Part shown: positions 7,707-56,485 of the stretch, piece after piece
Layout: every line of letters starts with the position of its first letter
How positions within the stretch are numbered: position 1 is the first letter of the stretch
Assembly: GCA_045577985.1 (NCBI GenBank)
Contig: JAZNJJ010000023.1
Location: 1,986-65,985, forward strand
Length of the DNA: 64,000 nucleotides
Direction of reading: 5' to 3'
DNA from: Alphaproteobacteria bacterium
GTDB taxonomy: Bacteria; Pseudomonadota; Alphaproteobacteria; RF32; CAG-239
The notes under the pieces: generated by a model
Databases searched by the model: none
Told to the model about the DNA's origin: nothing
Seen by the model: only the letters and a program-made list of their open reading frames with translations
Program-made: the position numbers and the translations under genes

Positions 7707-10700
7707 TTACCATACATACTTAATATTTCCACCAACACCCCAAGCATTATACTCAGATCCGAAGGTGTAATTTCCGAAGGCTCCTACAGAGAAGTTCTCG
7801 ATTAACTCTGCATCAGCTCCTATTTCTATACGACCTAATGTGTCATCTTCTATCGTTTCTTCAAATTCTTTTGAAGCAACAGTAACTTTTCCACCACTAG
7901 AAAGGGTTTGAATAATTGATGGTTTGATATAACCTGTTGTAGGTAGTTGACGTTCATTATTAAATTGATACTCAAATTTAATACCTGCTTCCAGTTCTAT
8001 GTCATGAATATCATCAAAACCAACTTCTTTTTCAGTACTATCAGTTAAATCATCAAACTTAATATAATCATATGTTGCTTTAATTGATGGTGTTAATACC
8101 GAACGTCGAGTTGTACGTATATCATAACCAATTTCTGCTTGAGCTCCGATATTTAAGCCTTTTGTTGAAGCAGTTACACTGTTGTCAGCTTTTACATCGA
8201 CATCTTGTTGCCCACCATAAACAACACCATTCATATATAAGTTACCAAAATATTTTCGATAATAAATTCCTGCTATAGCACTGGAAATATCCAGTTCACT
8301 ACCTTGGTTTGAAAAGTATTTTTCGCCTTTTCCCTCGTTTTCATACTTTCCTTTACGATATGAACCGAAGATACCAAACATATCACTATGAGTTGGTTGA
8401 TAATCAAAACCAAAATCTATACCATATACAGTTACGTCTGTTTCAATAGGTTTATCAAATGAACCAATACGGAATACTGGCTTTGCCCAAATTCTTGCTT
8501 TGTTATCATCACTGGTATATCGGCAGTAGCGATTATAACACATATCACTATAACAATCGCATCGTCCTTTATTTGTTCTTGAAATATCCAACATTATTGA
8601 ACGAGTTTGTTCTATTGCTGAACGTGGTAAATCAATATATGCAATCACTTCCGGACTTAATGCTGTTATATCTCTATATAAAAACCAATCATAAACAAGG
8701 CCATTTTGTTCATATCCAACATTGATTTCATATAAATTATTTACAACAAAAGTATTAAACTTATATTCAGATAAACTTTGCTCTGCCTGTGTTTGAGCAA
8801 AATATATTTTCTGTTCGTCCATGGTTAATGTATTTTGATTATCAAATACAACATTTGTTGTTCCATAAATACGATTATTAATTGTTATAACATCTGCTGT
8901 ATATGAAGGGTTATCGACATCAATGCGTATTGTTCCATCATTACTGGTTAAAGTATTTATTTCTATTTTTGATGTTACACCATCTCCCAAGTCAATTAAT
9001 CCTGTATTTATTACATTATTTGCCAAAACGATATTAGAGCTTGAAGTTGTTGCTCTATATGTGAGCTTGGCTCCGCGAGATATATCAAAATCATTGTTAA
9101 GAAGTGTATCTGTTGTATCTAAATTTATATATGAACCTCCAGCCATATTAATTGTATTATTACTAAAATTCATCGTTGGTTCATAATCTATATAACCACT
9201 ACTACCTAAATTTAACTGAGTATTACTTATATTGTATTTACCATTTCCACCAAATGTTGAATTTAGTACAACTTGAGTTAATGATGGAGAAATTGATTTT
9301 GGATGTATATTGCTTATTACAGCCCCTTTCATTGTATTTACAACCGAATTTGGCGAATCTCCAGAAATTGTAACTTCTCCTAAATTATAAACATCATCAG
9401 TGCTTGTATTAAATATTAACTTTGCTTTATCTTTTAGTTCAATATTAACGCCGGCATTTGCTTCATTATATATTGCACCGCCCTGATTAGATAAAGCTTC
9501 ATTATTATTAAACATTAAACTATTATTATCTTCTAATGTTACTGAAATATTTGCATCACTCGTATTATAAATAGCTGCTCCTTTTTGAGCCTTATTTGAA
9601 GCAAATAATAACTCTGATGTTTGTGCGGTGGTAAGATTTTCTATTTGAATATTGGCTTTTTCATTATAAATTGCTCCACCATTGTTACTTACATTATTTG
9701 ATGAAAAACTAATTGCAGAGTTATTACCTAATTGCAGTAAAACTGTACTTTCATCAGTATTATATATTGCACCGCCGTTTTTGGCACTATTTGAAGCAAA
9801 TTTTAATGAAGAAGAATTATTTGCCGTTAATGTAAGAGTTCCTGTTGAAGTGCTACTATTATATATGGCTCCACCATTTTCAGCAGCTTTATTTGAATTA
9901 AATTCAATATCTCCACCGGCTGACTTTAATGTCAAATATGAAGTAATTGATGAAGTCCCTAAAGCTACGCTTTGACCATTTGCACTATTATATATTGCAC
10001 CTCCATTTAGAGCCTCATTATTATTGAATACGATACTCTTATTATCTACTATACTTTCAATATTTAGTTGTCCGGTGCTTCCGTTATATATAGCTCCACC
10101 AAAATAATTCTTTGTGGTTGTTGCATTATTTGAGGTTACTACTATTTTGTTATTTTCAAATATAACATCCGATGATTGATTGCTTATTTTTAATAATGAA
10201 ATTGATGAATTTGCTCCATTATTATAAATTGCTCCACCATATGCATTGTTTGAAGTACCATTTTCAGTTACTTGAATTTGATTATTTTTAAAGCTGGTAT
10301 CAATAATATTCGTTTGCACATTTACGTTTGCATTGTAAATTGCTCCACCATAACCAGCTATTTTCGTTTTAACAATATTTCCATCAAATAAACTAGATTT
10401 TATATTTGATGTTGCCGTATTTTCAATCATATTAGCTAAGCCACCACCTACAGCATTACTGCCGTCTGAAATATTGGATGTAAAGCTTGCTCCAGTTATA
10501 TCTAAAGTTCCCATATTTCCTATCGCACCACCCGCAGACATTAATGAACCGCCTAGTGCTTGGTTACCGCTAAACTTGATCTCTTGAGTTGTTCCATCTA
10601 TCGATAAATTTCCGCTTGAATGATTTAATATTGCTCCACCACTAGAAAATGCTGCATCAGCTTTGTTATTTATAAATTCAGCTCCGGCAAGAATATCTAA

Positions 10701-12269
10701 TTGTGCAATTTGTGAAGTTGTTTCAGAAACATTACCATTATAAATAGCTCCACCAAATGCCTTATTTGTTTCTGAAGACGTTGAAGATGATTTAGTAGTG
10801 TTATTTGAATATGTATCTCCGCTAGATGTATAGTCTTTTGAGTTCATTATAGCACCACCTAAAGCAGAACCTACATTACTTTCAGCTTTGTTTGTTGAAA
10901 AACTTTTTGAATCAGATGATAATGTTCCAAAATTTGCAATAGCTCCTCCGGCAGAAATACTTTGTGTTGTTCCCGTGCTATTTGTATAGTTTTGAGTATA
11001 CGTAGCTTTATTTACAGCAGAACCATAATTGGCAAAAGCTCCACCTAATGCACCACTGGTACTACTTCCGGCACTTACATCTGCATGATTGCCTGTAAAT
11101 GAGCCGTGAACATCCATTACACCTTCAGTATCATTATATAATGCTCCTCCTTGGGCATTATTTTGGGCTGAAACATAGTTATTTTCATAAGTGATAACTG
11201 CATCTGATGATGTGGTTACAAATTTATCATTATACAGAGCTCCTCCATATGCAGAACCTCCTGATGCAATATTTGATTGCGCGTAATTGTCTTTAAATTC
11301 AATTTTACCTTCTAATATTAGTTGACCACCATTTGTTTGATTAAAGCTTACTGTATCATTATGAATTGCACCACCATATGCATTATCACCAATGGCAAAA
11401 TTGCCAATATATTTATCATTGTTTGTGGTATATTTACCTGTATTATATACAGCTCCTCCAGAAGCAATGTTTGAAGCAGATGTTCCGCCCCAAGCATTTT
11501 TTACATTTGTATCTAATCCGGCGAAATCAATATTACCGGCATGATTATTTGTATATGTATTATTGCTTGAGCTTAATATACCTTGTCCTGTATTTGGAGA
11601 TCCGTTAAAAATAGCTCCGCCTCGAGCAGTTTCATCACTCATAACATAGTTATTAGAAAAGGTTGAATTGTCTATTGTTGCCTCTGTGGTACTATAATTG
11701 GCAATAACACCACCAACTGTTCCCCAAGAATCATCTTGATAATCACATACACCCCCAAAACATGAAGCACTATTATTAGAAAAATCGGTATTTACAACTT
11801 TTAATATGGCATCATCACCAGCTGTATTTCCATTGGAAACCACGCTTCCACCGTTGTATAATATGTAGGCGTCCATATTATGTCTATTTGAAATTTGAGC
11901 TCTACTGTTATCTTCGACAATAGCTCCCGTGCTACTGTCATATTTATAACCAATTTGAACAGTTCCCATATTCAACAACCAAGAATAATTACTCCCACCA
12001 TTCGAATATATTCCTGCTGTATAACTTCCATTGACGTATAATTTACTTACTGCACTTGTATCACCATTTATGGATGTACCCATAGCATCTAACGGATTAC
12101 CATAATTCGGAGTATTAAATACAGATGAATCCATTGCGACACCAGCTGCATTGGCATTAAGAGAAAATAAAACGCTTCCCATACAGATGTTTAATAAAAA
12201 GCACTTTTTTAGAATACTTCTATATTGTGAACTAAGAGACCTTATTGCTCTTCGACTCAATTTTAACAT
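7707..12269 (-). CDS. Autotransporter (type Va) with a Pmp-type GGAIYN/FxxN repeat passenger, 1520 aa
   Basis: Signal peptide ..SVLFSLNANA|AG. There are dozens of GGA[IL][YFM]N and F.(N)N repeats. The C-terminal about 280 aa is a beta-barrel ending in ..GGNIKYVW. I moved the start to the ATG at 12269, which is preceded by AAGGAGG overlapping the stop of the upstream paralogue. Confidence 0.85.
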   Translation of the reverse strand: MLKLSRRAIRSLSSQYRSILKKCFLLNICMGSVLFSLNANAAGVAMDSSVFNTPNYGNPLDAMGTSINGDTSAVSKLYVNGSYTAGIYSNGGSNYSWLLNMGTVQIGYKYDSSTGAIVEDNSRAQISNRHNMDAYILYNGGSVVSNGNTAGDDAILKVVNTDFSNNSASCFGGVCDYQDDSWGTVGGVIANYSTTEATIDNSTFSNNYVMSDETARGGAIFNGSPNTGQGILSSSNNTYTNNHAGNIDFAGLDTNVKNAWGGTSASNIASGGAVYNTGKYTTNNDKYIGNFAIGDNAYGGAIHNDTVSFNQTNGGQLILEGKIEFKDNYAQSNIASGGSAYGGALYNDKFVTTSSDAVITYENNYVSAQNNAQGGALYNDTEGVMDVHGSFTGNHADVSAGSSTSGALGGAFANYGSAVNKATYTQNYTNSTGTTQSISAGGAIANFGTLSSDSKSFSTNKAESNVGSALGGAIMNSKDYTSSGDTYSNNTTKSSSTSSETNKAFGGAIYNGNVSETTSQIAQLDILAGAEFINNKADAAFSSGGAILNHSSGNLSIDGTTQEIKFSGNQALGGSLMSAGGAIGNMGTLDITGASFTSNISDGSNAVGGGLANMIENTATSNIKSSLFDGNIVKTKIAGYGGAIYNANVNVQTNIIDTSFKNNQIQVTENGTSNNAYGGAIYNNGANSSISLLKISNQSSDVIFENNKIVVTSNNATTTKNYFGGAIYNGSTGQLNIESIVDNKSIVFNNNEALNGGAIYNSANGQSVALGTSSITSYLTLKSAGGDIEFNSNKAAENGGAIYNSSTSTGTLTLTANNSSSLKFASNSAKNGGAIYNTDESTVLLQLGNNSAISFSSNNVSNNGGAIYNEKANIQIENLTTAQTSELLFASNKAQKGAAIYNTSDANISVTLEDNNSLMFNNNEALSNQGGAIYNEANAGVNIELKDKAKLIFNTSTDDVYNLGEVTISGDSPNSVVNTMKGAVISNIHPKSISPSLTQVVLNSTFGGNGKYNISNTQLNLGSSGYIDYEPTMNFSNNTINMAGGSYINLDTTDTLLNNDFDISRGAKLTYRATTSSSNIVLANNVINTGLIDLGDGVTSKIEINTLTSNDGTIRIDVDNPSYTADVITINNRIYGTTNVVFDNQNTLTMDEQKIYFAQTQAEQSLSEYKFNTFVVNNLYEINVGYEQNGLVYDWFLYRDITALSPEVIAYIDLPRSAIEQTRSIMLDISRTNKGRCDCYSDMCYNRYCRYTSDDNKARIWAKPVFRIGSFDKPIETDVTVYGIDFGFDYQPTHSDMFGIFGSYRKGKYENEGKGEKYFSNQGSELDISSAIAGIYYRKYFGNLYMNGVVYGGQQDVDVKADNSVTASTKGLNIGAQAEIGYDIRTTRRSVLTPSIKATYDYIKFDDLTDSTEKEVGFDDIHDIELEAGIKFEYQFNNERQLPTTGYIKPSIIQTLSSGGKVTVASKEFEETIEDDTLGRIEIGADAELIENFSVGAFGNYTFGSEYNAWGVGGNIKYVW

Positions 12270-12279
12270 ATTCCCCTCC

Positions 12280-15200
12280 TTACCATGTATAACGCATATG
12301 TCCACCAAATTCAAAACCGTTATAATCTGATCCGATTGTATAATTACCGAAACCACCAACGGTAAAGTTTGGCATTAGTGTTGCTTCTCCACCCATTTCT
12401 AAACGCACTGCTGTTTCATTTTGCAATGTGTCATCAATAGCAATATCTTTTATGGTAACCTCACCACCATTTTCTATTAATTGAATAATTGATGGTTTGA
12501 TATAACCTGTTGTTGGGTATTGTCTTTCATTATTAAACTGATATTCATATTTAACACCCAACTCTAATTCAATATCATGAATATCTTCTATGGTTACTTT
12601 TTTATCTAATGTATCAGTGAAATCATCAAAATTCACATAATCATACGAAACTCTCAAACTTGGAGTTATTGTTTCTCTTTTATTTAGACGAGATGTATAA
12701 CCTGTTTCAAATTGTAAACCTGTTGCTATACCAGATGTTGATGAACGGACATTCTCATCAGTATCCATACGGGCTTTTTGCTGTCCGCCATAAATAGATC
12801 CATTGAAATACATATTTCCAAAATATTTGCTATAATACAGACCTACAAGCACACTTTCCATATCCATTGTACGTGAACCATATGCAAAATAATCTCCATC
12901 TGATCCACCATCAGCATAATCGCCTTTTCGATATGAAACTACAAAACCTGTTTTTCCATTTGATGAGGTGTTTACATTTAATCCAAAATCTACACCCCAT
13001 ATCTTTGCATCAATTTCACTTGGAGCCTTAAATGTACTAATACGTGATATAGGATTTGCCCATAAACTTACTTTTGCATTTTCATCTACGACTTTTCGCA
13101 AAGTTCCTTTATAACCATATTCATAGCGAACTCGCGGAGTGTTATTATTTTTTGCCACATCATACATTACAGATCGAGTTTGTTCAACAGCTGCTCGTGG
13201 TAAAATGATATAGTTCAAAGCTTCTGTTCTTACAGCGCCACTTCGATATAAATACCAATCCATAACTCCATCGTGAACAGATGTTCCTTGTTCAATTATG
13301 AATACATAATTTTCTGAATCAAACACAAATGAAAAGTCTTCAGGATTTACATTTTCATTTGTCTGAGCAAAAGTAATTTTATGTCCTTTTTCTAATTGAT
13401 CTATTCCATCAAACGTAAAATTAGTTACTCCGGATACATTACCACTTATTACAATTTTATCTGATGTATTTTTATTTACATCAATATATACCCAACCACC
13501 ATTTGCCTCTAAATTAGTAACATTTATAGTTGATGATATACCATCTTTCAAATTCAGCACTCCGGAATGCGATAGTGTTTCCGCTAAAACAATATCCGGA
13601 GATGCCTCTGAACCAACATAATTAACAATTGCATCTGTGGTAATATTTAAGTTTGTTGCCGAAAATACATCTAAAGAATCTACATTTAAAACAGATGTTC
13701 CATTTAATGTTATCGAGCTATTAGCAAAATTTAATTTCTGAGCTCCATCAATTAAACCATTGTTTATCGTAAAATTCACCTCTTTGGCATATAATGAACC
13801 AGTTCCTTCAATATTAGAATTATAAAGGAATTCATTTTTATTCGTACCAAAAACATTTATTTCACCCAAATTATAAATATTATCAGTTGCTGTTTCAAAA
13901 TTTAATATTGATGTTCCGGATAATGTTAAATTAATTATCGAATCGGTATCATTATATATAGCTCCACCTTTTTCTGAAGCACTATTCCCTCTAAAAATTA
14001 TAGAATTTCCGCCATCAACATATAAATCTATTTTACTATTGTCAGTATTATATATTGCACCACCATTATCAGCAATATTATTTCCAAAACCTATTCCCGT
14101 ATTTGTAAATAATATAAATTCTCCGCCTGTGTTATATATTCCACCACCCAAAGAAGCTTTATTTTCTTTAATAACAACCTGAGAGGAGTTTGTATATTCC
14201 ATATTTACAACTCCGCTATTATAAATAGCTCCACCTCTTCCGGTTTTTGCATCATTCCAATTGAAAGCTACTGTTTTTACTTCATTTCCACTTATTTCTA
14301 TGTTTCCATCATTATAAATTGCACCACCATCAATGGCACTACCATCTGTTGCAACATTATAATTCATCATAATTTCTGCATTGTTATTCAAATCTATATG
14401 AAACGTTGCATTCTCTTTATTATAAATTGCACCACCTGCTTGAGAAACACTATTTTCTTTAAACTCCAAAGTTCCGTTTTCTACTGCAATATTTGTAACA
14501 GCTTTATTACTATTATATATCGCACCACCCATCTCTGCACTATTTTTAGAGAATGATAAAAATCCATCTTGCGCAACATTCATTTGCAAAAATGATGTTA
14601 CAGAATCAGTACCAACAGTTTTGCTACTATTATCTGCCAAATTATATATTGCGCCACCTTTTTGTGCGTAGTTCTCAGAAAAAACTATTTGATCTGTAGA
14701 AGCATCTATTTCAAGCTGTCCATATTGACCATTATAAATTGCGCCTCCCTTTGTTTCCGCCTCACCTGAAAAACCCGCATCTAAAACAGCTTTATTTCCA
14801 CTAAATACGATAGACCCTCTATCTCCTACGCCTATGTACATTTTAGAAATCTCATCAGTTATGGCATTATGGTATATTGCTCCACCATAAGCTTTTCCCT
14901 CTGTTGAATCCCCATATACTGTTATTACGTTATCTCTAAAAGATACTCCCGCAAGATTAACAGCGGTAGTATTTGTTGTTAGTGCATAAACAGCTAAACC
15001 ACCGCCTCGACCTTCTTTACTTACACCAATTTGATTACCCGTAATTGTTGAATTAGTTAAAGAAAAAGATGAAAAATCAGATGTGTGAGTATGATATATA
15101 CCTGCACCATTAGCATATTGAGAATTTATTCTATTAGAAGAAACTGTGATTCCACTAATATCCATAGAGCCTTTATTGTAAATAGCCCCACCATGCACAA

Positions 15201-15984
15201 GATAATAACCCGCCCCTGAAAGAGAATTATCTCGAGAAATAATTACATTGTTATTTGAGAAAGAGAGAGGATTTGCACCTCCATTAATAGCAACCTCGCC
15301 GGCAGAATATAAAACACCACCATTGATTTCCGTTGTACCATCGGTAGTTCCTGCTTCTCGTCTATCATAGATTGTTATAGTATTATCACTAAACGAAGTA
15401 CCGCCACCGATATCTAGGTCCTTAAATACATATTTCTGTGTTTGTTCTCCGGCAATACCTATAATACCACCGTTGATAATCATTTCACTATTAGGAACGT
15501 TAAGTTCTCCAGCTACAGTATTATTTGTGAAATTAGTAAAGTTTAATTTGATACGATTTGCATCCGTTGTATCTGTAACAAGACCTGTTGAGCTAATGAT
15601 ACCGCCGGAAATACCTTGATTTTCAAGAGATACCGTTTTATTAGAGATGTTATTATATGCTGAAACACTTCCTTCTATGGCTATTCTACCACCTTCATCA
15701 GCAACAAAAGATTTATTAGTCAGATTTATTTCTGATGTATAATTACCAACAAGTATCGCTGTATCGGAGACAGAAATTGTATAACTATCTCCAGAATCCC
15801 AATTATTCACACTTCCTTCTTCGACAGCCTTATCGTTTGGTATTATAATATTTTCAGCATTTGCACTTCCCGCAAATCCAAAGGCAAAAAACATTGCACC
15901 TAAGTTAATTAGAGCACATTTTTTTAACACATTACTGTACAGACGAATCAGCAAGCCACATGCGTGATTATGAGTTTTAGTCAT
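12280..15984 (-). CDS. Autotransporter (type Va) with a Pmp-type GGAIYN/FxxN repeat passenger, 1234 aa
   Basis: Signal peptide ..FGFAGSANA|EN, repeated GGAIYN motifs, and a beta-barrel ending in ..GGHMRYTW. AGGAGA RBS. It lies 10 nt upstream of its paralogue. Confidence 0.85.
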   Translation of the reverse strand: MTKTHNHACGLLIRLYSNVLKKCALINLGAMFFAFGFAGSANAENIIIPNDKAVEEGSVNNWDSGDSYTISVSDTAILVGNYTSEINLTNKSFVADEGGRIAIEGSVSAYNNISNKTVSLENQGISGGIISSTGLVTDTTDANRIKLNFTNFTNNTVAGELNVPNSEMIINGGIIGIAGEQTQKYVFKDLDIGGGTSFSDNTITIYDRREAGTTDGTTEINGGVLYSAGEVAINGGANPLSFSNNNVIISRDNSLSGAGYYLVHGGAIYNKGSMDISGITVSSNRINSQYANGAGIYHTHTSDFSSFSLTNSTITGNQIGVSKEGRGGGLAVYALTTNTTAVNLAGVSFRDNVITVYGDSTEGKAYGGAIYHNAITDEISKMYIGVGDRGSIVFSGNKAVLDAGFSGEAETKGGAIYNGQYGQLEIDASTDQIVFSENYAQKGGAIYNLADNSSKTVGTDSVTSFLQMNVAQDGFLSFSKNSAEMGGAIYNSNKAVTNIAVENGTLEFKENSVSQAGGAIYNKENATFHIDLNNNAEIMMNYNVATDGSAIDGGAIYNDGNIEISGNEVKTVAFNWNDAKTGRGGAIYNSGVVNMEYTNSSQVVIKENKASLGGGIYNTGGEFILFTNTGIGFGNNIADNGGAIYNTDNSKIDLYVDGGNSIIFRGNSASEKGGAIYNDTDSIINLTLSGTSILNFETATDNIYNLGEINVFGTNKNEFLYNSNIEGTGSLYAKEVNFTINNGLIDGAQKLNFANSSITLNGTSVLNVDSLDVFSATNLNITTDAIVNYVGSEASPDIVLAETLSHSGVLNLKDGISSTINVTNLEANGGWVYIDVNKNTSDKIVISGNVSGVTNFTFDGIDQLEKGHKITFAQTNENVNPEDFSFVFDSENYVFIIEQGTSVHDGVMDWYLYRSGAVRTEALNYIILPRAAVEQTRSVMYDVAKNNNTPRVRYEYGYKGTLRKVVDENAKVSLWANPISRISTFKAPSEIDAKIWGVDFGLNVNTSSNGKTGFVVSYRKGDYADGGSDGDYFAYGSRTMDMESVLVGLYYSKYFGNMYFNGSIYGGQQKARMDTDENVRSSTSGIATGLQFETGYTSRLNKRETITPSLRVSYDYVNFDDFTDTLDKKVTIEDIHDIELELGVKYEYQFNNERQYPTTGYIKPSIIQLIENGGEVTIKDIAIDDTLQNETAVRLEMGGEATLMPNFTVGGFGNYTIGSDYNGFEFGGHMRYTW

Positions 15985-27382: not shown

Positions 27383-28006
27383 ATGATGAATCATACTAAT
27401 CAATCCGGCAGATCTATGATTGAAATGCTCGGAGTTTTAGCGATTATCGGCGTATTGTCCGTTGGTGGAATCGCCGGTTATTCAAAAGCAATGATGAAGT
27501 TTAAAATTAATAAATCTATTGATCAAATTTCACAAATTGTGGCAAATACTCGTACACTTTATGCCAGACAGAAGAACTATGCTAACATTAGTAATAAAAT
27601 TATGTATAAAGCTAATTTAGCACCAAGAGAAATGTTTGAAGATGGTTCAGGTAGCTATTATGCAACCAATGCTTTTGGTGGTGGAGTAGAAATTTTCCCA
27701 ATTGGTTCAAAATTTTATGCTGAAAATGAAACAAATAAAGGATTTACCGTTGGATATTACGGACTTCCCGATGAAGCGTGTATTGAACTTGCAACACAAG
27801 ATTGGGGAAGTGATACATCTTCTGGTCTGTTAAGCGTTGGTATTAATACCGGTTCTGCTTGGGTAGGATGTCAAGGAGAGAATTATGGCAATCCACTAGC
27901 TTGCCCTGGTGGTTCAAATATATCTATTCCAATGCCTGTTGATATAGCGGTTGATGCATGTGATTGTGGGTATTCCGGATGTGATTTATATTTTTCTTAC
28001 AGGTAA
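27383..28006 (+). CDS. Type IV pilin-like protein (prepilin-type N-terminus), paralogue 1
   Basis: MMNHTNQSG|RSMIEMLGVLAIIGVLSVGGIAGYSKAM.. has a short polar leader ending in Gly, Glu at +5, and a hydrophobic helix of about 20 aa. The C-terminal part is Cys-rich (6 Cys). AGGAGA RBS. Confidence 0.7.
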   Translation: MMNHTNQSGRSMIEMLGVLAIIGVLSVGGIAGYSKAMMKFKINKSIDQISQIVANTRTLYARQKNYANISNKIMYKANLAPREMFEDGSGSYYATNAFGGGVEIFPIGSKFYAENETNKGFTVGYYGLPDEACIELATQDWGSDTSSGLLSVGINTGSAWVGCQGENYGNPLACPGGSNISIPMPVDIAVDACDCGYSGCDLYFSYR

Positions 28007-39361: not shown

Positions 39362-39397
39362 GAAACCCATTTTTGTATAATTATAAATTTTTTGTGT

Positions 39398-40264
39398 ATG
39401 GATTATGAATTTTTTGAAAAAACAGGACTTGTCTTGCAGACACAAGGCACCCGAAAATCTTTATTTAGATATAAAGACTTGGGCATAAAATTATCTCCAG
39501 TTCCCTTTGCCCAAAATGCATATTCTATTGATGTATATGAAGATGCAAATTTGATAGTTTGTGATGCAAGATATAATACTCTTGATGGAACATTGATAGA
39601 TTTTCACACAGATACTCATCCAATTAGTATTATTAAGTTGAAAGAAAATTGGCTGATATTAACTGAAAATTCTCTTTTTACCAAAAATAACATTAACTGT
39701 TTCATTTGGAGTGGCGCAAATATCTTACTATCTATGGGTGATCTCAAATCTGTTGTTCATTCTGACAAATATGTTGCAATGCTACGTCAAAATGAATGCC
39801 ATGTATATGACTATAATGCAAATAGATTAAGTAGGTTTCCTATTTTAGAAAATGAGCAAGTATTTATATACGGAGATCTAATTTATTGTAAAGCGTTGGG
39901 CAATTCATCATTAAGAAGTATTTCTAAAGACGAATTGTTGAAATCTAATCAGTTTTTGCTTGTATGTAGCAAAAAAGCTAATGGTTTTGCAATGTGCTCA
40001 TCTCTCAACAAAAAAGATATTGAGATTTATTATGACAAAACCTGGAGAACTGTTGAAAATGTTGCTTCATTTGGCTTGGTAGATAGTATTTCTGACGAAT
40101 TGGAATTATACTATATTGAACGAAATGGAAAGTTTTTTATTTATCATTTTAATGGCAATAGAGTATACAGCCAATTTGAAAATGGTCTTGATTATTTTAA
40201 GTACAATCCTAAAAACGGAACACTTTTTATAATCGCTGATGGTTTACCATATGTCTTAATTTAG
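39398..40264 (+). CDS. Hypothetical protein, tandem paralogue 1 (288 aa)
   Basis: I moved the start to the ATG at 39398. It shares blocks with the next gene (PV.FAQNA..I.VYED..L and ..GKFFIYHFNG..) and has its own promoter and terminator. Confidence 0.6.
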   Translation: MDYEFFEKTGLVLQTQGTRKSLFRYKDLGIKLSPVPFAQNAYSIDVYEDANLIVCDARYNTLDGTLIDFHTDTHPISIIKLKENWLILTENSLFTKNNINCFIWSGANILLSMGDLKSVVHSDKYVAMLRQNECHVYDYNANRLSRFPILENEQVFIYGDLIYCKALGNSSLRSISKDELLKSNQFLLVCSKKANGFAMCSSLNKKDIEIYYDKTWRTVENVASFGLVDSISDELELYYIERNGKFFIYHFNGNRVYSQFENGLDYFKYNPKNGTLFIIADGLPYVLI

Positions 40265-40366: not shown

Positions 40367-41290
40367 ATGGTAAACAAATTTTTCAAAAATCGCCACTTGC
40401 TTCTCATGGGAAAATTCAGTGGACAGTTTTCGTTGTTTAAGACAAATGTATACGGCAAGGTTTTAGAACCTGTTGAATATGCACAAAATGCCAAAAAGAT
40501 TACAGTGTTTGAAGATGTTCATCTGGTTGCTGTAGATGAATGTTTGTATATGATAGACACAGGGCACTGTATTTGTGTATGCGACGTTCCTCACAAGCAG
40601 ATACGATGTAGTATTGTTGGGAGCAATGCTCTGATTGAAATGCATCGCCCTGAGGGTTTTGGCGAACCCGCATGTTATCTGATGATTTGGGATGGCAAAA
40701 ATATCATATTCAATACTAGTGCTGAAAAAGTACTCTCGTACAATGGTTATTTTACTATCCAAAAAGACGGAGAGTGGATACTTTATTCCGGAAACGGACA
40801 AATTGTGGCAAAAATGCCGGTTACCAGTACAACTGAACTTCCGCGTGTATCAAATGATTCGCTGATCATTCCGAAAGATGGAGAGTATGTTATTGCTAGT
40901 ATGTTAGCGGTGAAAGACAATCGCTTTACTGGACGAACAGCCTCAAAAGTGTGCTCATCATCTGAGTTGCAGTTCTTCATCTACAGGAATCTATCTGGTA
41001 GTGTGGTAACTTCTTTCTTTGAAGAAGAAAGTTGTATCGGTGGCGAAGAAATTGAGGATTTCGGCATTGTGCATGAAAAGTTAACCTTTTATTTTACCAA
41101 AAAAGGAGGAAAGTATTTTCTTTATCACTTTGGAGGTGCTCCTTATGATGGAAAAACAGACGAGTTCGGCAATGCTTTTGCTTTTGATTCTCTCAATGCA
41201 AAAAGCGTTCTCGATGACCCCGATACTGTTATTCTTGCAACCTCAGTTGACGGGGAATTGTCTATCTTACAATTCGGCACAAATCCTTAA
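40367..41290 (+). CDS. Hypothetical protein, tandem paralogue 2 (307 aa)
   Basis: Its similarity to the 39398 gene is PVEYAQNAKKITVFEDVHLVAVDE versus PVPFAQNAYSIDVYEDANLIVCDA, and GGKYFLYHFGG versus NGKFFIYHFNG. Confidence 0.6.
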   Translation: MVNKFFKNRHLLLMGKFSGQFSLFKTNVYGKVLEPVEYAQNAKKITVFEDVHLVAVDECLYMIDTGHCICVCDVPHKQIRCSIVGSNALIEMHRPEGFGEPACYLMIWDGKNIIFNTSAEKVLSYNGYFTIQKDGEWILYSGNGQIVAKMPVTSTTELPRVSNDSLIIPKDGEYVIASMLAVKDNRFTGRTASKVCSSSELQFFIYRNLSGSVVTSFFEEESCIGGEEIEDFGIVHEKLTFYFTKKGGKYFLYHFGGAPYDGKTDEFGNAFAFDSLNAKSVLDDPDTVILATSVDGELSILQFGTNP

Positions 41291-41460: not shown

Positions 41461-41533
41461 TTCGAGCCCATTGATGAAACATCAAAAAAAACGCCCCTAC
41501 TTGGGGCGATTTTTTGGCTGCTTCACCTGGACT
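41461..41533. repeat. Direct repeat copy 1: the 54-56 nt flank downstream of tRNA-Gln (two hairpins) plus the last 19 nt of the tRNA
   Basis: ttcgagcccattgatgaaacatcaaaaaaaacgcccctacttggggcgattttttggctgcttcacctggact. It nearly matches 41614-41684, with 2 substitutions and a 2-nt A-run length difference. Confidence 0.85.
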
Positions 41534-41613: not shown

Positions 41614-41684
41614 TTCGAGCCCATTGATGAAACATCAAAAAACGCCCCTACTCGGGGCGGTTTTTTGGCTGCTTCACCTGGACT
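41614..41684. repeat. Direct repeat copy 2, which overlaps the 3' end of the intact tRNA-Gln
   Basis: ttcgagcccattgatgaaacatcaaaaaacgcccctactcggggcggttttttggctgcttcacctggact. Confidence 0.85.
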
Positions 41685-41739
41685 CGAACCAAGATTGACG
41701 GAGTCAGAATCCGCTGTCCTACCATTAGACGATGAAGCA
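41666..41739 (-). tRNA. tRNA-Gln (anticodon CUG)
   Basis: The reverse complement TGCTTCA-TC-GTCT-AATGGTA-GGAC-A-GCGGA-TTCTGAC-TCCGT-CAAT-CTTGG-TTCGAGT-CCAGG-TGAAGCA-G-CCA folds as a 74-nt cloverleaf. Confidence 0.88.
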
Positions 41740-42619: not shown

Positions 42620-42626
42620 TAAAATA

Positions 42627-42660
42627 AAAGCATACAGAAAATCATATCTGTATGCTTTTT
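42627..42660 (-). terminator. Terminator after the 1244-aa gene (the hairpin is usable in both directions)
   Basis: aaaagcatacag..ctgtatgctttt 12-bp stem, 17 nt beyond the stop at 42678. Confidence 0.7.
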
Positions 42661-42677: not shown

Positions 42678-45600
42678 TTACCAAATTTCGTCATACCTCA
42701 AACTTGGATCATTTAAACGCTCCAGATAACCGTCAGCATTTTCTTTGACATAAGAGGTTGAAACATTGTTCATATTATCATATTGATCAATATATTTTCT
42801 AGCAACATCATTATTATAACTTTCCGGATAAATACCCGTTCTATCAAAGTAGCAATAAGTTGAAGCAAATCCCTCGAGACTTTTACGTTTAACAGGGAAT
42901 ACATTCCAATACATTACATCAGTTGTACTCTTTTTATATTCAGGAGCTTTTAATTTATCATTATCCTTTCCATTTATGTTTTCTACTACATCTTTATATC
43001 TATCTGACGGATACAAGAAACCCATCAATACAGCCCAACCAGAAACATATCCACCAGAGATATTACCACTAAGAGTATCTTCAAGAGATGTAGGTTGTCC
43101 TACAATTACGGGAACTTGAGCTGTTTTTAACCATGTACTTTGTTGGAAAACAAACGGTCGTAATGTTTTATCGGTTGCTGTTGAGAATACATAAGCCGGA
43201 CCGCTTACGTTTACTGTATTTCCATCTTCATCCTTACTTTGATAATCTATTTGAGCACTCAAACCTTCTATATTAGAAACAGATAATTTAGTATTATTTA
43301 ATTTTGTTGTACTTGCAGTAGTCTCATCTGTTACTGTCATAGATACACTATTCTCTCCTGCAGGTTTTATATTAACTGTGCTGTATTCAGGCAATTTTGC
43401 ACTATCTTTTAATAATGTACCTAATGTACCATCAGCTGGAGCCATATATCCTTCATCTACATAATAACTATTTTGGTGATTAGATGATGGATTACTGGTA
43501 TTATTTTGTGATAGTGAACCGGCTTGAGCCATTTGGAAATTAGATGGAGTTACTGTCAGCACACGCATATATCCCGGTGGACATTGTGGTGCAGGCACTA
43601 TACCGGTATATGGAGATCCCCAAGAAGTGACTGTTGACAGCTCGTCATCTTTATAGACCAAATCTGCATCCGATTTACCACCTACATTTGCAGTTAGAAC
43701 ACCTTTATCAACTGTTGCATCTGTTATCTTGAATTCTGTAATTATATCTTTTTTAGAGTTATTGACAATGTATATACCCTTATTGATGAAATCCGGTAAA
43801 ATATCACTTAAACGGGCTCCACCGCGAGTAGTTAGCTTGATATCATGCATAACTGATGTATAAGCAGGGTTAACCATATATGTATCATATCGGTTAGTTT
43901 TATCGCTAGCATTGTACGTTGAATATTCGCCATTTTGGAGAAGGTCTGGAACTTTATAGGCTTCTGCTCCATCATAATTGTTATTAGCAACAAAACGGCT
44001 TGCTTTGATTATTCCGTCATTTGCGCTATTTTCGTCTGAATAATCCCCCATTACTTCAAGAGCACCTTTACGGACATATACTGTTCCTCCCTTCAATTCG
44101 TCATGAACTGTATTTATAGAAGCAGTGTCATCACCACTAGCGGTTACCGGTATTGTCTGATCTACGACAAAAACACTCCCTTCAGAATTTGCTCCGGAAT
44201 TTGTTACAATATTGACACCGGCACCCGGATCATACTTACCTACAGACATATGTTTTGTATAAACACGTGTATCACCAACAAGTTCACCTTCATTGGTAAA
44301 TATTATGTCTCCATGAAATGCAGCATCATATCCCTTAACAGTAATAGTTTCTCCTTCTTCTTCACCTTCTGTTGTTTTATCATAAAGTAAACTATCATTA
44401 TAATTCTCGGAATACTTTTCTTCCTTATAATCATTACCACGAATAGCAAATATGCTACGAACATTATTATCTTTATCTCTTCGCATTATTTTGAAATTTG
44501 AATCGAGCAAATCAACATTTCCTCCGTCAACAATAGTTCTATAGTTTACGGCAAAATCCTTATCTGCAAGCTTATTTAAGCCGGAAATTTTTAATTCATT
44601 ATTGACTATTTGGGTTTCGATTAAATCATTGCGGATTGAAATTTCTCCTGAATGAACACTTTCTGCCCCCGGTATACCATGGGCGTCTAACACAATGGAA
44701 CTGGCTCCGGCGAAAATTTCACCTTCGTATTGACTATTATCGCCAATACGATTTTCTCTATCACGTAATAATAACTGTGTTTGGTGATTCGTAGTTAAAC
44801 GATTATTAGCATCTGTTGGGGAAATACCAACATCTGTTGCCTTACCACGACGAAGAGCTATAACATTATTGTTTACTTTAACTTGATTACCTATTTCTTC
44901 TTCTGTATGATCGGTATCTTCAATATTTACACCATTGGCATCAACTTTAAGCCATTGATATTGATCATCAACATGTGTTGAACCAACACTTAAAGTAGAA
45001 GTGCGAAGTCTGTTGGTATCAATTTGTGATGCAGATAATAATGCCTCAACCTGCATATTGGAACCAACTTTAATAGGAAATTCTTGTTCAACATTATATT
45101 GAACCTCTTCAATTGCATTTGATGTAGGTATTTCGTTTCCTTCCTCATCAACTTCGCCACTCATCACTTTGACACCACTATATATCTCGCGTCCTAAAAT
45201 TAAACGAGATTTATCTGTATCGGTTCCCTTGGCGTATGCTACAAACATATTTGGATCTAATAAACTTAACTGAGCTCCTCTATCTGAATTAGTTTTTGCC
45301 CTAATCACGTAAGCATTGTCAAACTCTGAGGTCAATTCACTATCATAATAACCTATTTTAATATCGCCGGCATCAAAAAACTCTGTAGCAAGGTTAAGAT
45401 TACCGGTATTTTTAATATCTCCATCAGGGTTAACCTCAAATCTATAGCCTTCAGCTTCTTGTTGATACCCATATCCCATCAGGTTCATACCGGCAAAGAA
45501 ATTTGACCATCCGGCACGAAGAGCACCACCAATATAAGCACTGTGAGAACCTCCTTCTGTCATAGCTTCGTTACCATTTAAGTACAATCCATAATTTCTA

Positions 45601-46412
45601 TCTTGACCGTCAGGTATCTTTTCAACACCGACAATTAAACTTTTAATATTACGAATACTGTATACAGAGCCTTTACCTTCTTTAGCTTCTTTTGGATCAT
45701 AATCATCAAATCCGCCCATATAAATATCCGTACGCATGGTGTTTTCCCATTCTTGACCAGGGGCATATACACGACTTAAGTATTTATAGTTCTCTGTTTC
45801 ACTTGCTCCACCTCCTTCAGTTATGGTTTCAGAAGATGCCGTAACGATTGAATACTGATGAGCACCCGTTCCTTCTGCACCAAAAACCGTATTGTATTGG
45901 TTATTATCTAAAGACCAAATACCACCAATACCTCGAGCTGTATTTTCGCCATTTACATAACCACCATTTGCCCCAATTAATGATGCAATCTTAGCTGTTC
46001 TTTCTTGGCCAATACCCTGCTCTGCATCTGCTTCAGCAGGAAATAAGACAAATGTTGTTAAATTGTTTCCATTTTTATGAACTTTAATAACTGGAGTACC
46101 ATAATTATATAGTGCCTTATCAACATTAAAATTATATGGCAGAAAAAGTTTAAGTTGTGTAGCTTCAACAGTAGCTACAGGATTAGCGCTTTCAAGGAGA
46201 GTTTTATAGTTTGATGCAACATATGAATCCGCAGCATTCATAATGGTACGAACCGTTGTTGCGGTATTAATATCCTCAACTTCCATTGTTCGTTCTGCAG
46301 ATTTTTTATACATGGTAGGTGTTACTACCGCTATAAGACCAAGCATAGCAAGGGCTTCAATCATTAAGCCACCCTTTTCTGCTATAGATTTTCTTAAATT
46401 ATATTTTTTCAT
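42678..46412 (-). CDS. Giant protein of 1244 aa with a type IV prepilin-like N-terminus. It may be a pilus-associated adhesin or tip protein.
   Basis: MKKYNLRKSIAEKG|GLMIEALAMLGLIAVVTPTMY.. has a basic leader ending in Gly, Glu at +5, and a hydrophobic helix. The xxMIExL core is the same as in the two small pilin-like genes. AAGGAGA RBS. The remaining about 1200 aa is G/N/T/D/Y-rich and predicted extracellular, with two Cys near the C-terminus. Confidence 0.7.
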   Translation of the reverse strand: MKKYNLRKSIAEKGGLMIEALAMLGLIAVVTPTMYKKSAERTMEVEDINTATTVRTIMNAADSYVASNYKTLLESANPVATVEATQLKLFLPYNFNVDKALYNYGTPVIKVHKNGNNLTTFVLFPAEADAEQGIGQERTAKIASLIGANGGYVNGENTARGIGGIWSLDNNQYNTVFGAEGTGAHQYSIVTASSETITEGGGASETENYKYLSRVYAPGQEWENTMRTDIYMGGFDDYDPKEAKEGKGSVYSIRNIKSLIVGVEKIPDGQDRNYGLYLNGNEAMTEGGSHSAYIGGALRAGWSNFFAGMNLMGYGYQQEAEGYRFEVNPDGDIKNTGNLNLATEFFDAGDIKIGYYDSELTSEFDNAYVIRAKTNSDRGAQLSLLDPNMFVAYAKGTDTDKSRLILGREIYSGVKVMSGEVDEEGNEIPTSNAIEEVQYNVEQEFPIKVGSNMQVEALLSASQIDTNRLRTSTLSVGSTHVDDQYQWLKVDANGVNIEDTDHTEEEIGNQVKVNNNVIALRRGKATDVGISPTDANNRLTTNHQTQLLLRDRENRIGDNSQYEGEIFAGASSIVLDAHGIPGAESVHSGEISIRNDLIETQIVNNELKISGLNKLADKDFAVNYRTIVDGGNVDLLDSNFKIMRRDKDNNVRSIFAIRGNDYKEEKYSENYNDSLLYDKTTEGEEEGETITVKGYDAAFHGDIIFTNEGELVGDTRVYTKHMSVGKYDPGAGVNIVTNSGANSEGSVFVVDQTIPVTASGDDTASINTVHDELKGGTVYVRKGALEVMGDYSDENSANDGIIKASRFVANNNYDGAEAYKVPDLLQNGEYSTYNASDKTNRYDTYMVNPAYTSVMHDIKLTTRGGARLSDILPDFINKGIYIVNNSKKDIITEFKITDATVDKGVLTANVGGKSDADLVYKDDELSTVTSWGSPYTGIVPAPQCPPGYMRVLTVTPSNFQMAQAGSLSQNNTSNPSSNHQNSYYVDEGYMAPADGTLGTLLKDSAKLPEYSTVNIKPAGENSVSMTVTDETTASTTKLNNTKLSVSNIEGLSAQIDYQSKDEDGNTVNVSGPAYVFSTATDKTLRPFVFQQSTWLKTAQVPVIVGQPTSLEDTLSGNISGGYVSGWAVLMGFLYPSDRYKDVVENINGKDNDKLKAPEYKKSTTDVMYWNVFPVKRKSLEGFASTYCYFDRTGIYPESYNNDVARKYIDQYDNMNNVSTSYVKENADGYLERLNDPSLRYDEIW

Positions 46413-46441
46413 CTGCCATCTCCTTTTTAATAATCATAATA

Positions 46442-47176
46442 TTATAGATTATTTTCATACTCATCTCTTATTTCTTCACAATATCTACCAATATCTGATC
46501 TGCGTAATTCAGTATATGCAAAAAAGCAAGGTACGCCTGATAACTTGCACTCTTCATTAAATGTAGTATTTGCCCATATTACAGAATTTGGAATGATTAC
46601 ACCCTCTTTTCTCTTTGTTCCAATACCGACTAGCTTACATGTATCATCCTCGCAATCTGCCCAACCGTATATTGTTCCAAAATCAGAATTCTTTGATAAG
46701 AAATTATTTAGCATTGGAATTGGAGCTATCTCATCTTTCCTAACCCATCTTTCGGGAATTTTTGCAAATGATACACCATAATATCTTCCTGCGGTTGATC
46801 CAATTACAACTGCTTGATCGGTCTCATCAATTTTTTTGTTTAACGGATAAACAAAATGATTAACCTTTAAGACACTTTCATCTATACTGTAACCAATAGG
46901 AAGATTTTGTGCAAATGCAGTATATCCAAAGTCAACATCTGACTGAATAGGACAACCGTCTTCTGTGGTACATAAATCTCGCCAGTTGCCATTACTAGTA
47001 TTATTTACAATTTCACATCTCATGGTACCCGTAAAGGCGCTATGCTCCATCTTAAAACGATTTACGATTATTGAGGTCTTTGCTTCATTAATATAATTTT
47101 CTTTATCTGCACGCGGAGAGATGTTATAGAAGCTAAAAGCTACCATAATAGTTGCTAATAATATCCAAATATACAT
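46442..47176 (-). CDS. Cys-rich protein of 244 aa with an N-terminal hydrophobic anchor, co-transcribed with the giant pilin-like gene
   Basis: MYIWILLATIMVAFSFYNI.. anchor and 9 Cys in the predicted exported part. GGGAGA RBS. It ends 29 nt upstream of the 1244-aa gene. Confidence 0.6.
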   Translation of the reverse strand: MYIWILLATIMVAFSFYNISPRADKENYINEAKTSIIVNRFKMEHSAFTGTMRCEIVNNTSNGNWRDLCTTEDGCPIQSDVDFGYTAFAQNLPIGYSIDESVLKVNHFVYPLNKKIDETDQAVVIGSTAGRYYGVSFAKIPERWVRKDEIAPIPMLNNFLSKNSDFGTIYGWADCEDDTCKLVGIGTKRKEGVIIPNSVIWANTTFNEECKLSGVPCFFAYTELRRSDIGRYCEEIRDEYENNL

Positions 47177-47327
47177 AGCTCATCTCCCAATGAAACCACT
47201 CTAATATGTTTTAATCTATCACAAAAACGCAAAAAATGCCAGCATCAAATGTAGATGTAGCGTAATTTTCACATTTCTGTAACAATTTAGCATATAGGTT
47301 GTAAAAAAAAGATTAAAATTAAATTTT

Positions 47328-47351
47328 AAGCTCCCAAATAGGGAGCTTTTT
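47328..47351. terminator. Hairpin directly after the thioredoxin-like gene
   Basis: aagctccc-aaata-gggagctt. The T run is on the plus-strand side, so minus-strand termination efficiency is uncertain. Confidence 0.45.
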
Positions 47352-47352
47352 G

Positions 47353-47721
47353 TTATTTCTTTAGATAAGGTTTAACGTAGACTTCAAATTGATGTTCGTC
47401 TGCTTTACTCCACCCCATAATATATTTATCACCCATACAGATAAGAGGAGTACCTGCTCTACTGCCGTCTATTTTATATTTGCGTACAGCTTTTTCAAAC
47501 AAACGCATATTTCCTGGCAATTTAACGTCTAAGCTAACAACTTCTAAATCCGGATATTTAGCTTTTATATAACGTGCAGCATCATGACAATGCGGACATG
47601 TATTTTGATAGAAAAAATATATTTCATCAGCACTTAATTGTGTTACATTCTTACCTGAATCACCACAAGCCGACAATAGTGATAAAACACCACAAAATAA
47701 CGATATTAAAAATTTTTTCAT
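47353..47721 (-). CDS. Thioredoxin-fold lipoprotein (CPHC active site)
   Basis: Lipobox LLSAC, FYQNTCPHCHDA (CxxC), and a glutaredoxin/DsbA-like size. Confidence 0.7.
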   Translation of the reverse strand: MKKFLISLFCGVLSLLSACGDSGKNVTQLSADEIYFFYQNTCPHCHDAARYIKAKYPDLEVVSLDVKLPGNMRLFEKAVRKYKIDGSRAGTPLICMGDKYIMGWSKADEHQFEVYVKPYLKK

Positions 47722-55738: not shown

Positions 55739-55810
55739 TTTTTATGTAAAAATCAAATTCAAATTCATAATAAAATCAACAATTTAAATTTCAAGTGAAA
55801 AATGAATTTT

Positions 55811-55843
55811 ATGTCCGAAAAAAAGGATCCCTTTTTTCGGACA
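55811..55843. repeat. Palindrome B2, the exact reverse complement of A2
   Basis: atgtccgaaaaaaaggatcccttttttcggaca. It is identical to B1 except for the complementary central base (A to T). Confidence 0.9.
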
Positions 55844-55861
55844 AAGATAGAGGAGTTTAAT

Positions 55862-56485
55862 ATGAATAAAATGTGTAGAACCACAAACCAAACTGGTCGT
55901 TCAATGATTGAAATGCTTGGAGTTTTGGCGATTATAGGCGTGTTATCTGTGGGTGGTATTGCTGGCTATTCCAAAGCAATGATGAAATTTAAAATAAATA
56001 AAACAATCGACCAAATTTCACAAATGGCTCAAAATACTCGGACGTTATACGCTAGACAAAGAAATTATGGTAATTTAAGTTCCAGAATTTTATATAAAGC
56101 TAATTTAGCTCCTCGAGAAATGTTTGAAGGAGGCTCTGGAGATTATAGCATGACTAATGCTTTTGGTGGATCCGTTGATATTGGAACGCGTGGCAAAAAT
56201 GTTGATGGCGATAATAAAGCATTTTTTATTCATTTCAATGGCTTGCCAGAAGAAGCGTGTATAGAATTAATGACACAAGACTGGGGAAGTGATACAGGTT
56301 CCGGATTAATTGCTGTTGGTACTTTTAATGTTTCATTTTATTATGTTGGATGCTCCGGAGATGCTGATAGGGGTATAGCTTGTCCAGGGGGAGCAGAAGT
56401 ATCGGTACCAATGCCTGTTGATGTGGCGGTTGATACTTGTAATTGCAGTGAAACAGGATGCACTTTTGAACTTAAGTATTATTAA
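55862..56485 (+). CDS. Type IV pilin-like protein, paralogue 2
   Basis: MNKMCRTTNQTG|RSMIEMLGVLAIIGVLSVGGIAGYSKAMMKFKINK.. I moved the start from 55802, because the track ORF reads through palindrome B2, to the ATG at 55862, which follows GAGGAG. The C-terminus is Cys-rich, as in paralogue 1. Confidence 0.7.
   Translation: MNKMCRTTNQTGRSMIEMLGVLAIIGVLSVGGIAGYSKAMMKFKINKTIDQISQMAQNTRTLYARQRNYGNLSSRILYKANLAPREMFEGGSGDYSMTNAFGGSVDIGTRGKNVDGDNKAFFIHFNGLPEEACIELMTQDWGSDTGSGLIAVGTFNVSFYYVGCSGDADRGIACPGGAEVSVPMPVDVAVDTCNCSETGCTFELKYY

Follow-up and report, generated by a model that had tools for sequence, protein, structure and literature searches.

A giant predicted type IVb minor pilin of the PilV class and its partner protein in uncultured gut Alphaproteobacteria

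Two neighbouring genes lie on the minus strand of a 64,000-nucleotide stretch of DNA from an Alphaproteobacteria bacterium (contig JAZNJJ010000023.1), which was analysed at its full length and is called the window here. The larger (42678..46412) encodes a protein of 1244 residues and the smaller (46442..47176), directly upstream, a partner of 244 residues; both are supported by open reading frame (ORF) calls and by homologues. The large protein is very likely a homologue of the type IVb minor pilins of the PilV class, and it would seem probable that it acts as a giant, modular member of this class that is displayed on a pilus. PilV-type adhesins are known from the conjugative plasmids of enterobacteria, where they select mating partners in the gut. 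PilV is a minor pilin that has been shown experimentally to be an adhesin, with its C-terminus setting the specificity (PMC9045228).

The homology to PilV is located in residues 5–261 of the large protein (45630..46400, minus strand), which correspond to the constant N-terminal region of the IncI-plasmid proteins, and is seen with Pfam, tblastn and BLASTP. An initial annotation of this DNA, made from the sequence alone, had proposed that the N-terminal ~190 residues may resemble this constant region and that Pfam Shufflon_N be searched; the searches bear the proposal out. When residues 1–265 were scanned alone, Shufflon_N (PF04917) matched residues 49–234 with 33.1 bits against a gathering cutoff of 27.5 (E 5.6e-8). 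The match was not reported in the scan of the full 1244 residues, and had first been seen, weakly, on a 273-residue fragment from a strain with a broken copy of the gene; 7 of 18 divergent N-terminal domains of the family also matched. A tblastn search of 72,556 plasmids with the N-terminal 265 residues matched 842 records at 26–29% identity and 84–97% query coverage, and all 25 of the 25 matches listed fall under the annotation ‘shufflon system plasmid conjugative transfer pilus tip adhesin PilV’. BLASTP against one plasmid PilV (431 residues) gave an E value of 5e-14 across residues 5–261, and motifs such as KIA..IGA.GG.V and NTM.T...MGG are common to the two proteins.

The large protein begins MKKYNLRKSIAEKGGLMIEALAMLGLIAVVTPTMY, and its N-terminus has the features of a prepilin. 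Residues 1–14 (MKKYNLRKSIAEKG; 46371..46412, minus strand) form a short, basic class III leader that ends in Gly14 at −1, after which prepilin peptidase is predicted to cut. The leader is followed by the hydrophobic N-terminal helix expected of a mature pilin (residues 15–41; 46290..46370, minus strand), recognised by alignment, hydrophobicity and hhalign, with Glu19 at +5. Gly14 and Glu19 are invariant in 46 homologues, as are 24 of the 28 residues of the span 14–41; since the overall identity of these homologues is only ~40%, the motif must be more than a chance resemblance. Residues 20–35 are both hydrophobic and invariant, and residues 13–35 are the one hydrophobic segment of the whole protein. 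Were this N-terminus a Sec signal or a plain membrane anchor, one would not expect it to be conserved better than the rest of the protein; the sequences of signal anchors drift, and a charged Glu within a plain anchor would be unusual. In distant members of the family the sequence is K/Q-G-S/T-M/L-M-V/I-E-A-L-A-M-L, with Gly(−1) and Glu(+5) kept and with G, S or T at +1. The core G-x-x-M-I-E-x-L is shared with two small pilins encoded at 27383..28006 and 55802..56485 (GRSMIEMLGVL). In two motif scans covering six-frame stop-to-stop segments of at least 40 residues, only these three ORFs of the window had a pilin-like G-x-x-M-I-E N-terminus, and hhalign placed the helix of the large protein in register with the N-terminus of the small pilins. 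The Gly-Gly, the Glu at +5, the hydrophobic helix and the MIExL core shared with the small pilins, all noted in the initial annotation, are thus as described there. For structure prediction with AlphaFold2 the syntenic orthologue P0015 was used as a stand-in for the 1244-residue protein. In agreement with the pilin-like helix that had been anticipated, the model has a long N-terminal helix (residues 31–78) followed by strands, which form a beta sheet, and a helix, with a predicted local distance difference test score (pLDDT) of 70–86 over residues 41–200.

Relatives of the large protein are all unannotated, and hundreds of them are 900–1470 residues long. A word-indexed search returned more than 585 full-length relatives, and an exhaustive profile search gave at least 589 clusters at 50% identity, with 285 at E <= 1e-30. 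A scan of one genome per species yielded 74 loci; the locus set totals 82, and the upstream sequence is readable in 76. Nearly all of the 74 loci are in metagenome-assembled genomes titled uncultured Alphaproteobacteria (or Proteobacteria, Rhodospirillaceae or Azospirillaceae), with a few bins otherwise named, and the sources of the carrier genomes are human, ruminant, horse and rabbit gut. The family is absent from IMG/VR viral contigs. The partner gene lies directly upstream of the large gene in all 76 readable loci, across differing neighbourhoods and with a gap of 536 nt in one of them; it is also found upstream of the large gene in a distant subfamily member. Conservation in the surroundings of the pair extends to no other gene; the one that recurs most often, a NUDIX gene, is present in 14 of the 82 loci.

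In the window the ORF list places both genes at the positions and on the strand first noted, with 29 nt between the end of the partner gene and the start of the large gene. The Shine-Dalgarno sequences, which the initial annotation had judged to be good, can be read as GGGAG for the partner (47184..47188, minus strand) and AAGGAG for the large gene (46420..46425, minus strand), each 7 nt before the ATG. A terminator-like hairpin with a 13-bp stem and a T-rich tail (42626..42659, minus strand) is positioned 19 nt past the stop codon of the large gene. At the other end, a palindromic hairpin with an 8-bp stem containing 5 GC pairs (47328..47348) lies at the boundary between the pair and a thioredoxin-like gene, and a separate transcription unit probably begins there. 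With a Shine-Dalgarno sequence before each gene and a hairpin on either side, the pair has the look of a single transcription unit, whose two genes would be co-transcribed.

The partner begins MYIWILLATIMVAFSFYNI. Its first 22 residues (MYIWILLATIMVAFSFYNISPR; 47111..47176, minus strand) form a near-invariant hydrophobic helix with the consensus MYIWILLATIMVAlSFfNxSPR, in which 13 of the 22 positions are invariant in an alignment of 49 sequences. The N-terminus starts MYIW and, throughout this alignment, carries neither a leader nor a Gly(−1)/Glu(+5) motif; an in-frame TGA two codons 5′ of the ATG rules out a longer form. A Sec-cleaved secreted protein was considered for the partner and rejected, because the N-terminal helix is its most conserved part. 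The partner contains eight cysteines (54, 69, 75, 175, 180, 210, 217 and 233) rather than the nine first ascribed to its exported domain. Its AlphaFold2 model is confident (pLDDT 90.2) and consists of a helix at residues 2–17, a break at a proline, a second helix at residues 23–57 and a mixed sheet-and-helix domain that holds the conserved cysteines. This order of secondary structure would fit either a pilin-like subunit or a PilN/PilO-type assembly protein, and the model does not tell the two apart. The partner had no Pfam match, whether scanned in full or as the periplasmic part alone, and no tblastn match in plasmids, and none of its 97 homologues is annotated. Directly upstream of the pair is the gene for a thioredoxin-fold lipoprotein with a CPHC motif (47353-47721, minus strand), with weak, sub-threshold matches to TrbB, the disulfide isomerase of F-type pilin assembly, and to YruB glutaredoxin-like proteins. 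It might help to oxidise the cysteine-rich partner; the gene is syntenic in only 9 of the 82 loci, and its link to the pair is not conserved.

Beyond the PilV-like region the large protein continues for ~980 residues (42681..45629, minus strand) that are predicted to be mostly beta and have no detectable relatives outside the family. The composition of the large protein (G 8.8, N 8.3, T 7.7, S 7.5, D 7.2 and Y 5.7%) and its lack of internal repeats agree with the initial description of it as rich in G/N/D/T/Y and without obvious repeats. There are exactly two cysteines, 944 and 1187, both invariant in alignments of 23 and 46 sequences; two had been counted before, though ‘near the C-terminus’ is a loose description of Cys944, which lies at 76% of the length. 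They delimit a span at 42852..43583 (minus strand) and may form a disulfide. Residues 841–881 (RYDTYMVNPAYTSVMHDIKLTTRGGARLSDILPDFINKGIY; 43770..43892, minus strand) make up an ultra-conserved segment in which most positions are invariant in 46 sequences and where, for residues 841–870, column identity is 98% among 23 divergent homologues; the AlphaFold2 confidence in this segment is low. The protein ends in the motif (R)LNDPxLxYxxxW (42681..42716, minus strand), which is kept in distant family members, with L1233, N1234, D1235, P1236, Y1240 and W1244 invariant in 46 sequences. No Pfam match was found when residues 251–1244 were scanned piecewise, and full-length Pfam and NCBIfam scans of both proteins of the pair gave nothing useful. 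Profile searches of PDB sequences were empty or at chance level, whether made with the whole family, with its N-terminal domain or with the partner, and tblastn with the extension found no plasmid or phage match. One protein, P0469 (966 residues; L185:538-3438), has a Sec signal and LRR_5 repeats joined to the C-terminal ~450 residues of the family, including the ultra-conserved segment, and the neighbour upstream appears to be Gram-positive. Either the scaffold is a chimera or the protein shows that the C-terminal module can move to another carrier.

Comparison with a same-species strain reveals four hypervariable patches in the extension, three at residues 361–480, 601–720 and 761–837 (in the zone 43902..45332, minus strand) and a fourth at residues 1118–1157 (42942-43061, minus strand). 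The patches are 65–85% identical between the strains, whilst the flanking DNA is 98.7–99.2% identical, and divergence localised in this way would be the signature of an exposed surface. Variation by a shufflon or by phase switching was considered and is not supported: no strong inverted repeats were found at or past the 3′ end of the large gene, and the ORFs scanned with Pfam to either side of the pair include no recombinase. The one broken copy, in a human-gut assembly of the window's species (L005:10765-14439), results from a simple nonsense substitution, TAT to TAA at codon 274, that splits the gene into ORFs of 273 and 941 residues; either an error in sequencing or a natural knockout could account for it.

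The two small pilin genes of the window provide candidates for the fibre itself. That at 27383..28006 (plus strand) encodes 207 residues, a candidate major fibre subunit, and scores 51.5 bits on Pfam Bundlin and 50.4 on PilS; that at 55802..56485 (plus strand) encodes 227 residues as called and scores 49.9 bits on PilS and 47.7 on Bundlin. Both are above threshold on both models and are therefore type IVb pilins; both are orphans, far from any machinery. The second is 83.8% identical in nucleotides to its counterpart in strain L004 of the same species, where the flanks are ~99% identical, which suggests antigenic or receptor variation of the major pilin. In five other genomes, namely that of the window's species (L004/L005) and those of L029, L052, L070 and L077, there are type IVb pilin genes no more than 10 kb from the pair. 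In L029 a gene for a prepilin peptidase (Peptidase_A24, E 3.8e-16) is separated from the pair by 2.3 kb, and a gene 97% identical to it is also on the 10-kb flank in L016 and L021, which are two closely related species.

A search of metagenomes with an alignment of the small pilins uncovered a complete type IVb operon in about a dozen contigs. It consists of TcpQ, a PilN-family type IVb secretin, PAP_PilO, a PilP-family protein, a T2SSE ATPase of 556–560 residues, T2SSF, the pilins and a second ATPase of 320–332 residues; the pilin part comprises one uncleaved pilin-like protein and one to three PilS/bundlin pilins. The carriers are other gut Alphaproteobacteria (L109, L129, L145 and L161–L170, e.g. 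L161:4940-15310), including the ‘Proteobacteria bacterium CAG:495’ lineage. The gene order is the same as that on a pilV-bearing Citrobacter plasmid, in which pilV, the shufflon and the recombinase come straight after the second ATPase. No pilV homologue was found in the chromosomal operon or in the flanks that were read, and an unlinked giant PilV-like gene would fill this gap neatly. No prepilin peptidase gene lies inside the chromosomal R64-type operon. This R64/IncI-type operon adjoins two TrbC/VirB2-like genes and a gene for a 1212-residue secreted protein rich in coiled-coil-type sequence. The latter, beside the L161 operon, was considered as a member of the large-protein family and rejected, as it has a Sec signal and coiled-coil-type sequence.

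The likeness to PilV of the thin type IVb pili of the IncI1/IncI2 plasmids (R64, R721 and TP114) extends beyond the prepilin-type N-terminus and the homologous first ~260 residues: in both, the variable part is C-terminal to the conserved part, and both are paired with major pilins of the PilS/bundlin type. The differences are equally clear. The large protein is about three times longer (1244 residues against 431 in the plasmid copy compared), it matches only about half of the constant-region model, and its gene has neither shufflon repeats nor a recombinase, the variation being allelic. It is chromosomal, belongs to uncultured gut Alphaproteobacteria and is never next to a pil operon: whereas pilV comes directly after the second ATPase on the Citrobacter plasmid, the large gene occupies no such position in the 76 loci. 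It is always preceded by the partner gene, which the plasmid operons lack.

Three other kinds of large pilus protein invite comparison. TcpB of Vibrio cholerae and CofB of enterotoxigenic E. coli are proteins of 400–520 residues encoded beside the major pilin. As in the large protein, a pilin module is followed by beta-rich C-terminal domains, and their supposed site is the pilus tip (PMC8179133; general knowledge); neither in sequence nor in structure is the similarity significant. PilB and PilC of Streptococcus sanguinis are modular pilins that likewise consist of a pilin module with a grafted, bulky display module (PMC8179133), although they belong to another type of pilus in another phylum and have recognisable extra domains (vWA, lectin), where none is detected in the ~980 residues here. 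The initial annotation had regarded a pilin-like protein of more than 1200 residues as exceptional. This should be softened, since the modular design is common among pilins and a protein of 860 residues is named as the extreme among the multi-domain cases (PMC8179133), and since hundreds of members of the present family alone are 900–1470 residues long; the large protein nonetheless exceeds that extreme case. PilY1/PilC, which is the tip adhesin of type IVa pili though not itself a pilin, is similar in size (~1000–1200 residues), in its presumed position at the tip and in relying on small partners, which are minor pilins (general knowledge; PMC8179133). Unlike the large protein, which carries a pilin module, PilY1 is a protein with a Sec signal and a beta-propeller at its C-terminus, and no PilY1 domain was found by Pfam in the large protein, scanned at full length and in pieces. 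By homology the carrier belongs with PilV; what is new is a module of ~980 residues of no known family together with an obligate partner, rather than a new principle.

These comparisons lead us to propose how the pair might function. Once prepilin peptidase had removed the 14-residue leader, the N-terminal helix would insert the large protein into a type IVb pilus made of PilS/bundlin-type pilins encoded elsewhere in the genome. It would probably be situated at the tip of the pilus, as a low-copy or initiating subunit, from where the mostly beta, strain-variable extension could bind a surface in the gut, be it that of the host, a food particle or another microbe. The extension would take the role of the short, shufflon-swapped C-terminus of plasmid PilV, with allelic divergence in place of DNA inversion. 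The partner may be a bitopic membrane protein, rich in disulfides, on which the folding, docking or co-assembly of the giant subunit depends.

A number of observations weigh against a PilV-class minor pilin displayed on a pilus. The association with type IV filament genes on which the initial annotation had made its reading depend was seen only in part: pilin and prepilin peptidase genes are present on the pair's contigs, but in the 76 loci the pair is never within a pil cluster and has no ATPase or secretin gene within 10 kb. Pfam, motif and BLAST searches likewise found no assembly ATPase, secretin or platform gene in the window or the 82 loci. The operon-bearing contigs that were read have a GC content of 41–53% and come from lineages rather distant from the carriers of the pair (Der ~73% and BamB ~38% identical), and the operon could not be placed in a pair-carrying genome through nucleotide overlap or high-identity proteins shared between the locus sets. 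Pfam N_methyl (PF07963), the search for which had been proposed at the outset, scores nothing on the large protein and neither does TIGR02532 (E <= 10 for the N-terminal segment, E <= 1 for the full length). The window's own type IVb pilin, however, reaches just 16.2 bits on N_methyl; as a bona fide type IVb pilin thus also falls below the cutoff, the model is insensitive to the motif of this clade, in which G, S, T or R is found at +1. The Shufflon_N match spans only positions 10–186 of the 324 in the model and does not cover the whole constant region. The full-length AlphaFold2 model of the orthologue has a mean pLDDT of 55, with the extension mostly in strands at low confidence, and Foldseek found no PDB match to it at E <= 0.001. 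Its weak matches to this low-confidence model are to a phage tail-fibre protein and to TcpB/CofB (E 0.05–1.7), with the TcpB/CofB structures 7w63_B, 6mic and 4qs4 at a non-significant 1.6–1.7. The partner, for all the confidence of its model, has no Foldseek match in the PDB at E <= 0.001 and no PDB profile match, and hhalign of it against the small pilins and the large protein gave a probability below 1%.

The missing machinery and the silent N_methyl models would be as expected if the large protein were PilV-derived yet independent of any pilus, that is, an envelope protein with an uncleaved signal anchor and a large periplasmic or surface domain, with the partner as a second membrane subunit; the partner, plainly a bitopic membrane protein without a cleavage motif, is consistent with this too. 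Such a protein seems improbable given that Gly(−1), Glu(+5) and the helix do not vary among hundreds of clusters and are in the register of the genome's own pilins, that the charged Glu is out of place in a plain anchor, that the pair shares its contigs with pilin and prepilin peptidase genes and that hypervariability between strains suggests exposure to the outside. It is also unlikely, if slightly less so, that the large protein is a minor pilin concerned mainly with pilus initiation and retraction or with the docking of cargo, in the manner of TcpB and CofB, and that its extension is structural, for example a trimeric stalk. The Glu(+5) N-terminus and the large C-terminal beta region do parallel TcpB and CofB (PMC8179133 discussion and general knowledge), which are the only pilin structures among the weak Foldseek matches. 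The second, short ATPase in the related operons could drive retraction, and a mostly-strand monomer model of low confidence may be what an obligate oligomer would give. Those matches are not significant, though, the sequence homology is to PilV, for which the role shown is adhesion (PMC9045228), the hypervariable patches fit a surface facing a ligand or the immune system better than a purely structural stalk, and the partner is membrane-anchored rather than a secreted cargo.

A more speculative arrangement, which we likewise think unlikely, would have the two proteins form a pilus tip of a new kind. The partner, a pilin mimic without a leader, would have a helix that, with proline 21 resembling the kink proline of pilins, enters the core of the fibre unprocessed and caps the filament. 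The extension would oligomerise into a fibre-like stalk, giving an adhesive tip far larger than any described for a type IV pilus, and the 41-residue ultra-conserved segment at 841–881 would form the contact of the two proteins with each other or of one subunit with the next. An artefact, in the form of an ORF that is long by chance or of a mis-assembled chimera, is scarcely credible. One same-species assembly does have the TAT-to-TAA change at codon 274, and one related protein resembles a chimeric scaffold, but full-length collinear homologues exist in at least 74 species-level genomes and 589 clusters, with the termini and the pairing conserved, and conservation this broad refutes it. The PilV-class minor pilin, displayed on a pilus, is the reading that we prefer. 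It is in keeping with the fibre-tip or fibre-displayed adhesin put forward in the initial annotation, whose predictions were for the most part borne out.

The remainder of the window, which has a GC content of ~33%, has the usual housekeeping content for an alphaproteobacterium, with recA, accBC, accD, ftsH, tsaB, HU, ruvC, RNase E/G and squalene-synthase-like genes. Between 39392 and 41290 are two tandem ORFs on the plus strand (39392-40264 and 40367-41290; 290 and 307 residues) without a Pfam match, and a family of ~295-residue genes similar to them adjoins the large gene in 8 loci, sometimes as two copies. A 34-nt direct repeat, 94% identical (41500-41533 and 41651-41684), lies beside tRNA-Gln (41666-41739, minus strand) and duplicates the 3′ end of this tRNA gene 151 nt away; it could be the scar of an integration site. 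Two adjacent giant autotransporters (7707-12359 and 12280-15984, both on the minus strand; 1550 and 1234 residues as called) each have, by Pfam, the Chlamydia-type polymorphic membrane protein repeat and an autotransporter beta-domain. Together with the PilV-like protein they bring the number of very large predicted surface proteins to three within 64 kb of an apparently small genome.

A PilV-derived carrier fused to a module of ~980 residues has become a core chromosomal gene in a clade of abundant, uncultured Alphaproteobacteria of the gut and rumen. Among the candidate surface adhesins of gut metagenomes the family, with at least 589 clusters, all unannotated, is one of the larger ones still without a name, and its hypervariable patches could be used as strain markers. 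It raises the question of how so large a subunit passes through a type IVb machine and what part the obligate partner plays. The family offers a handle on the attachment of these gut organisms and a very large example for the idea of the modular pilin.

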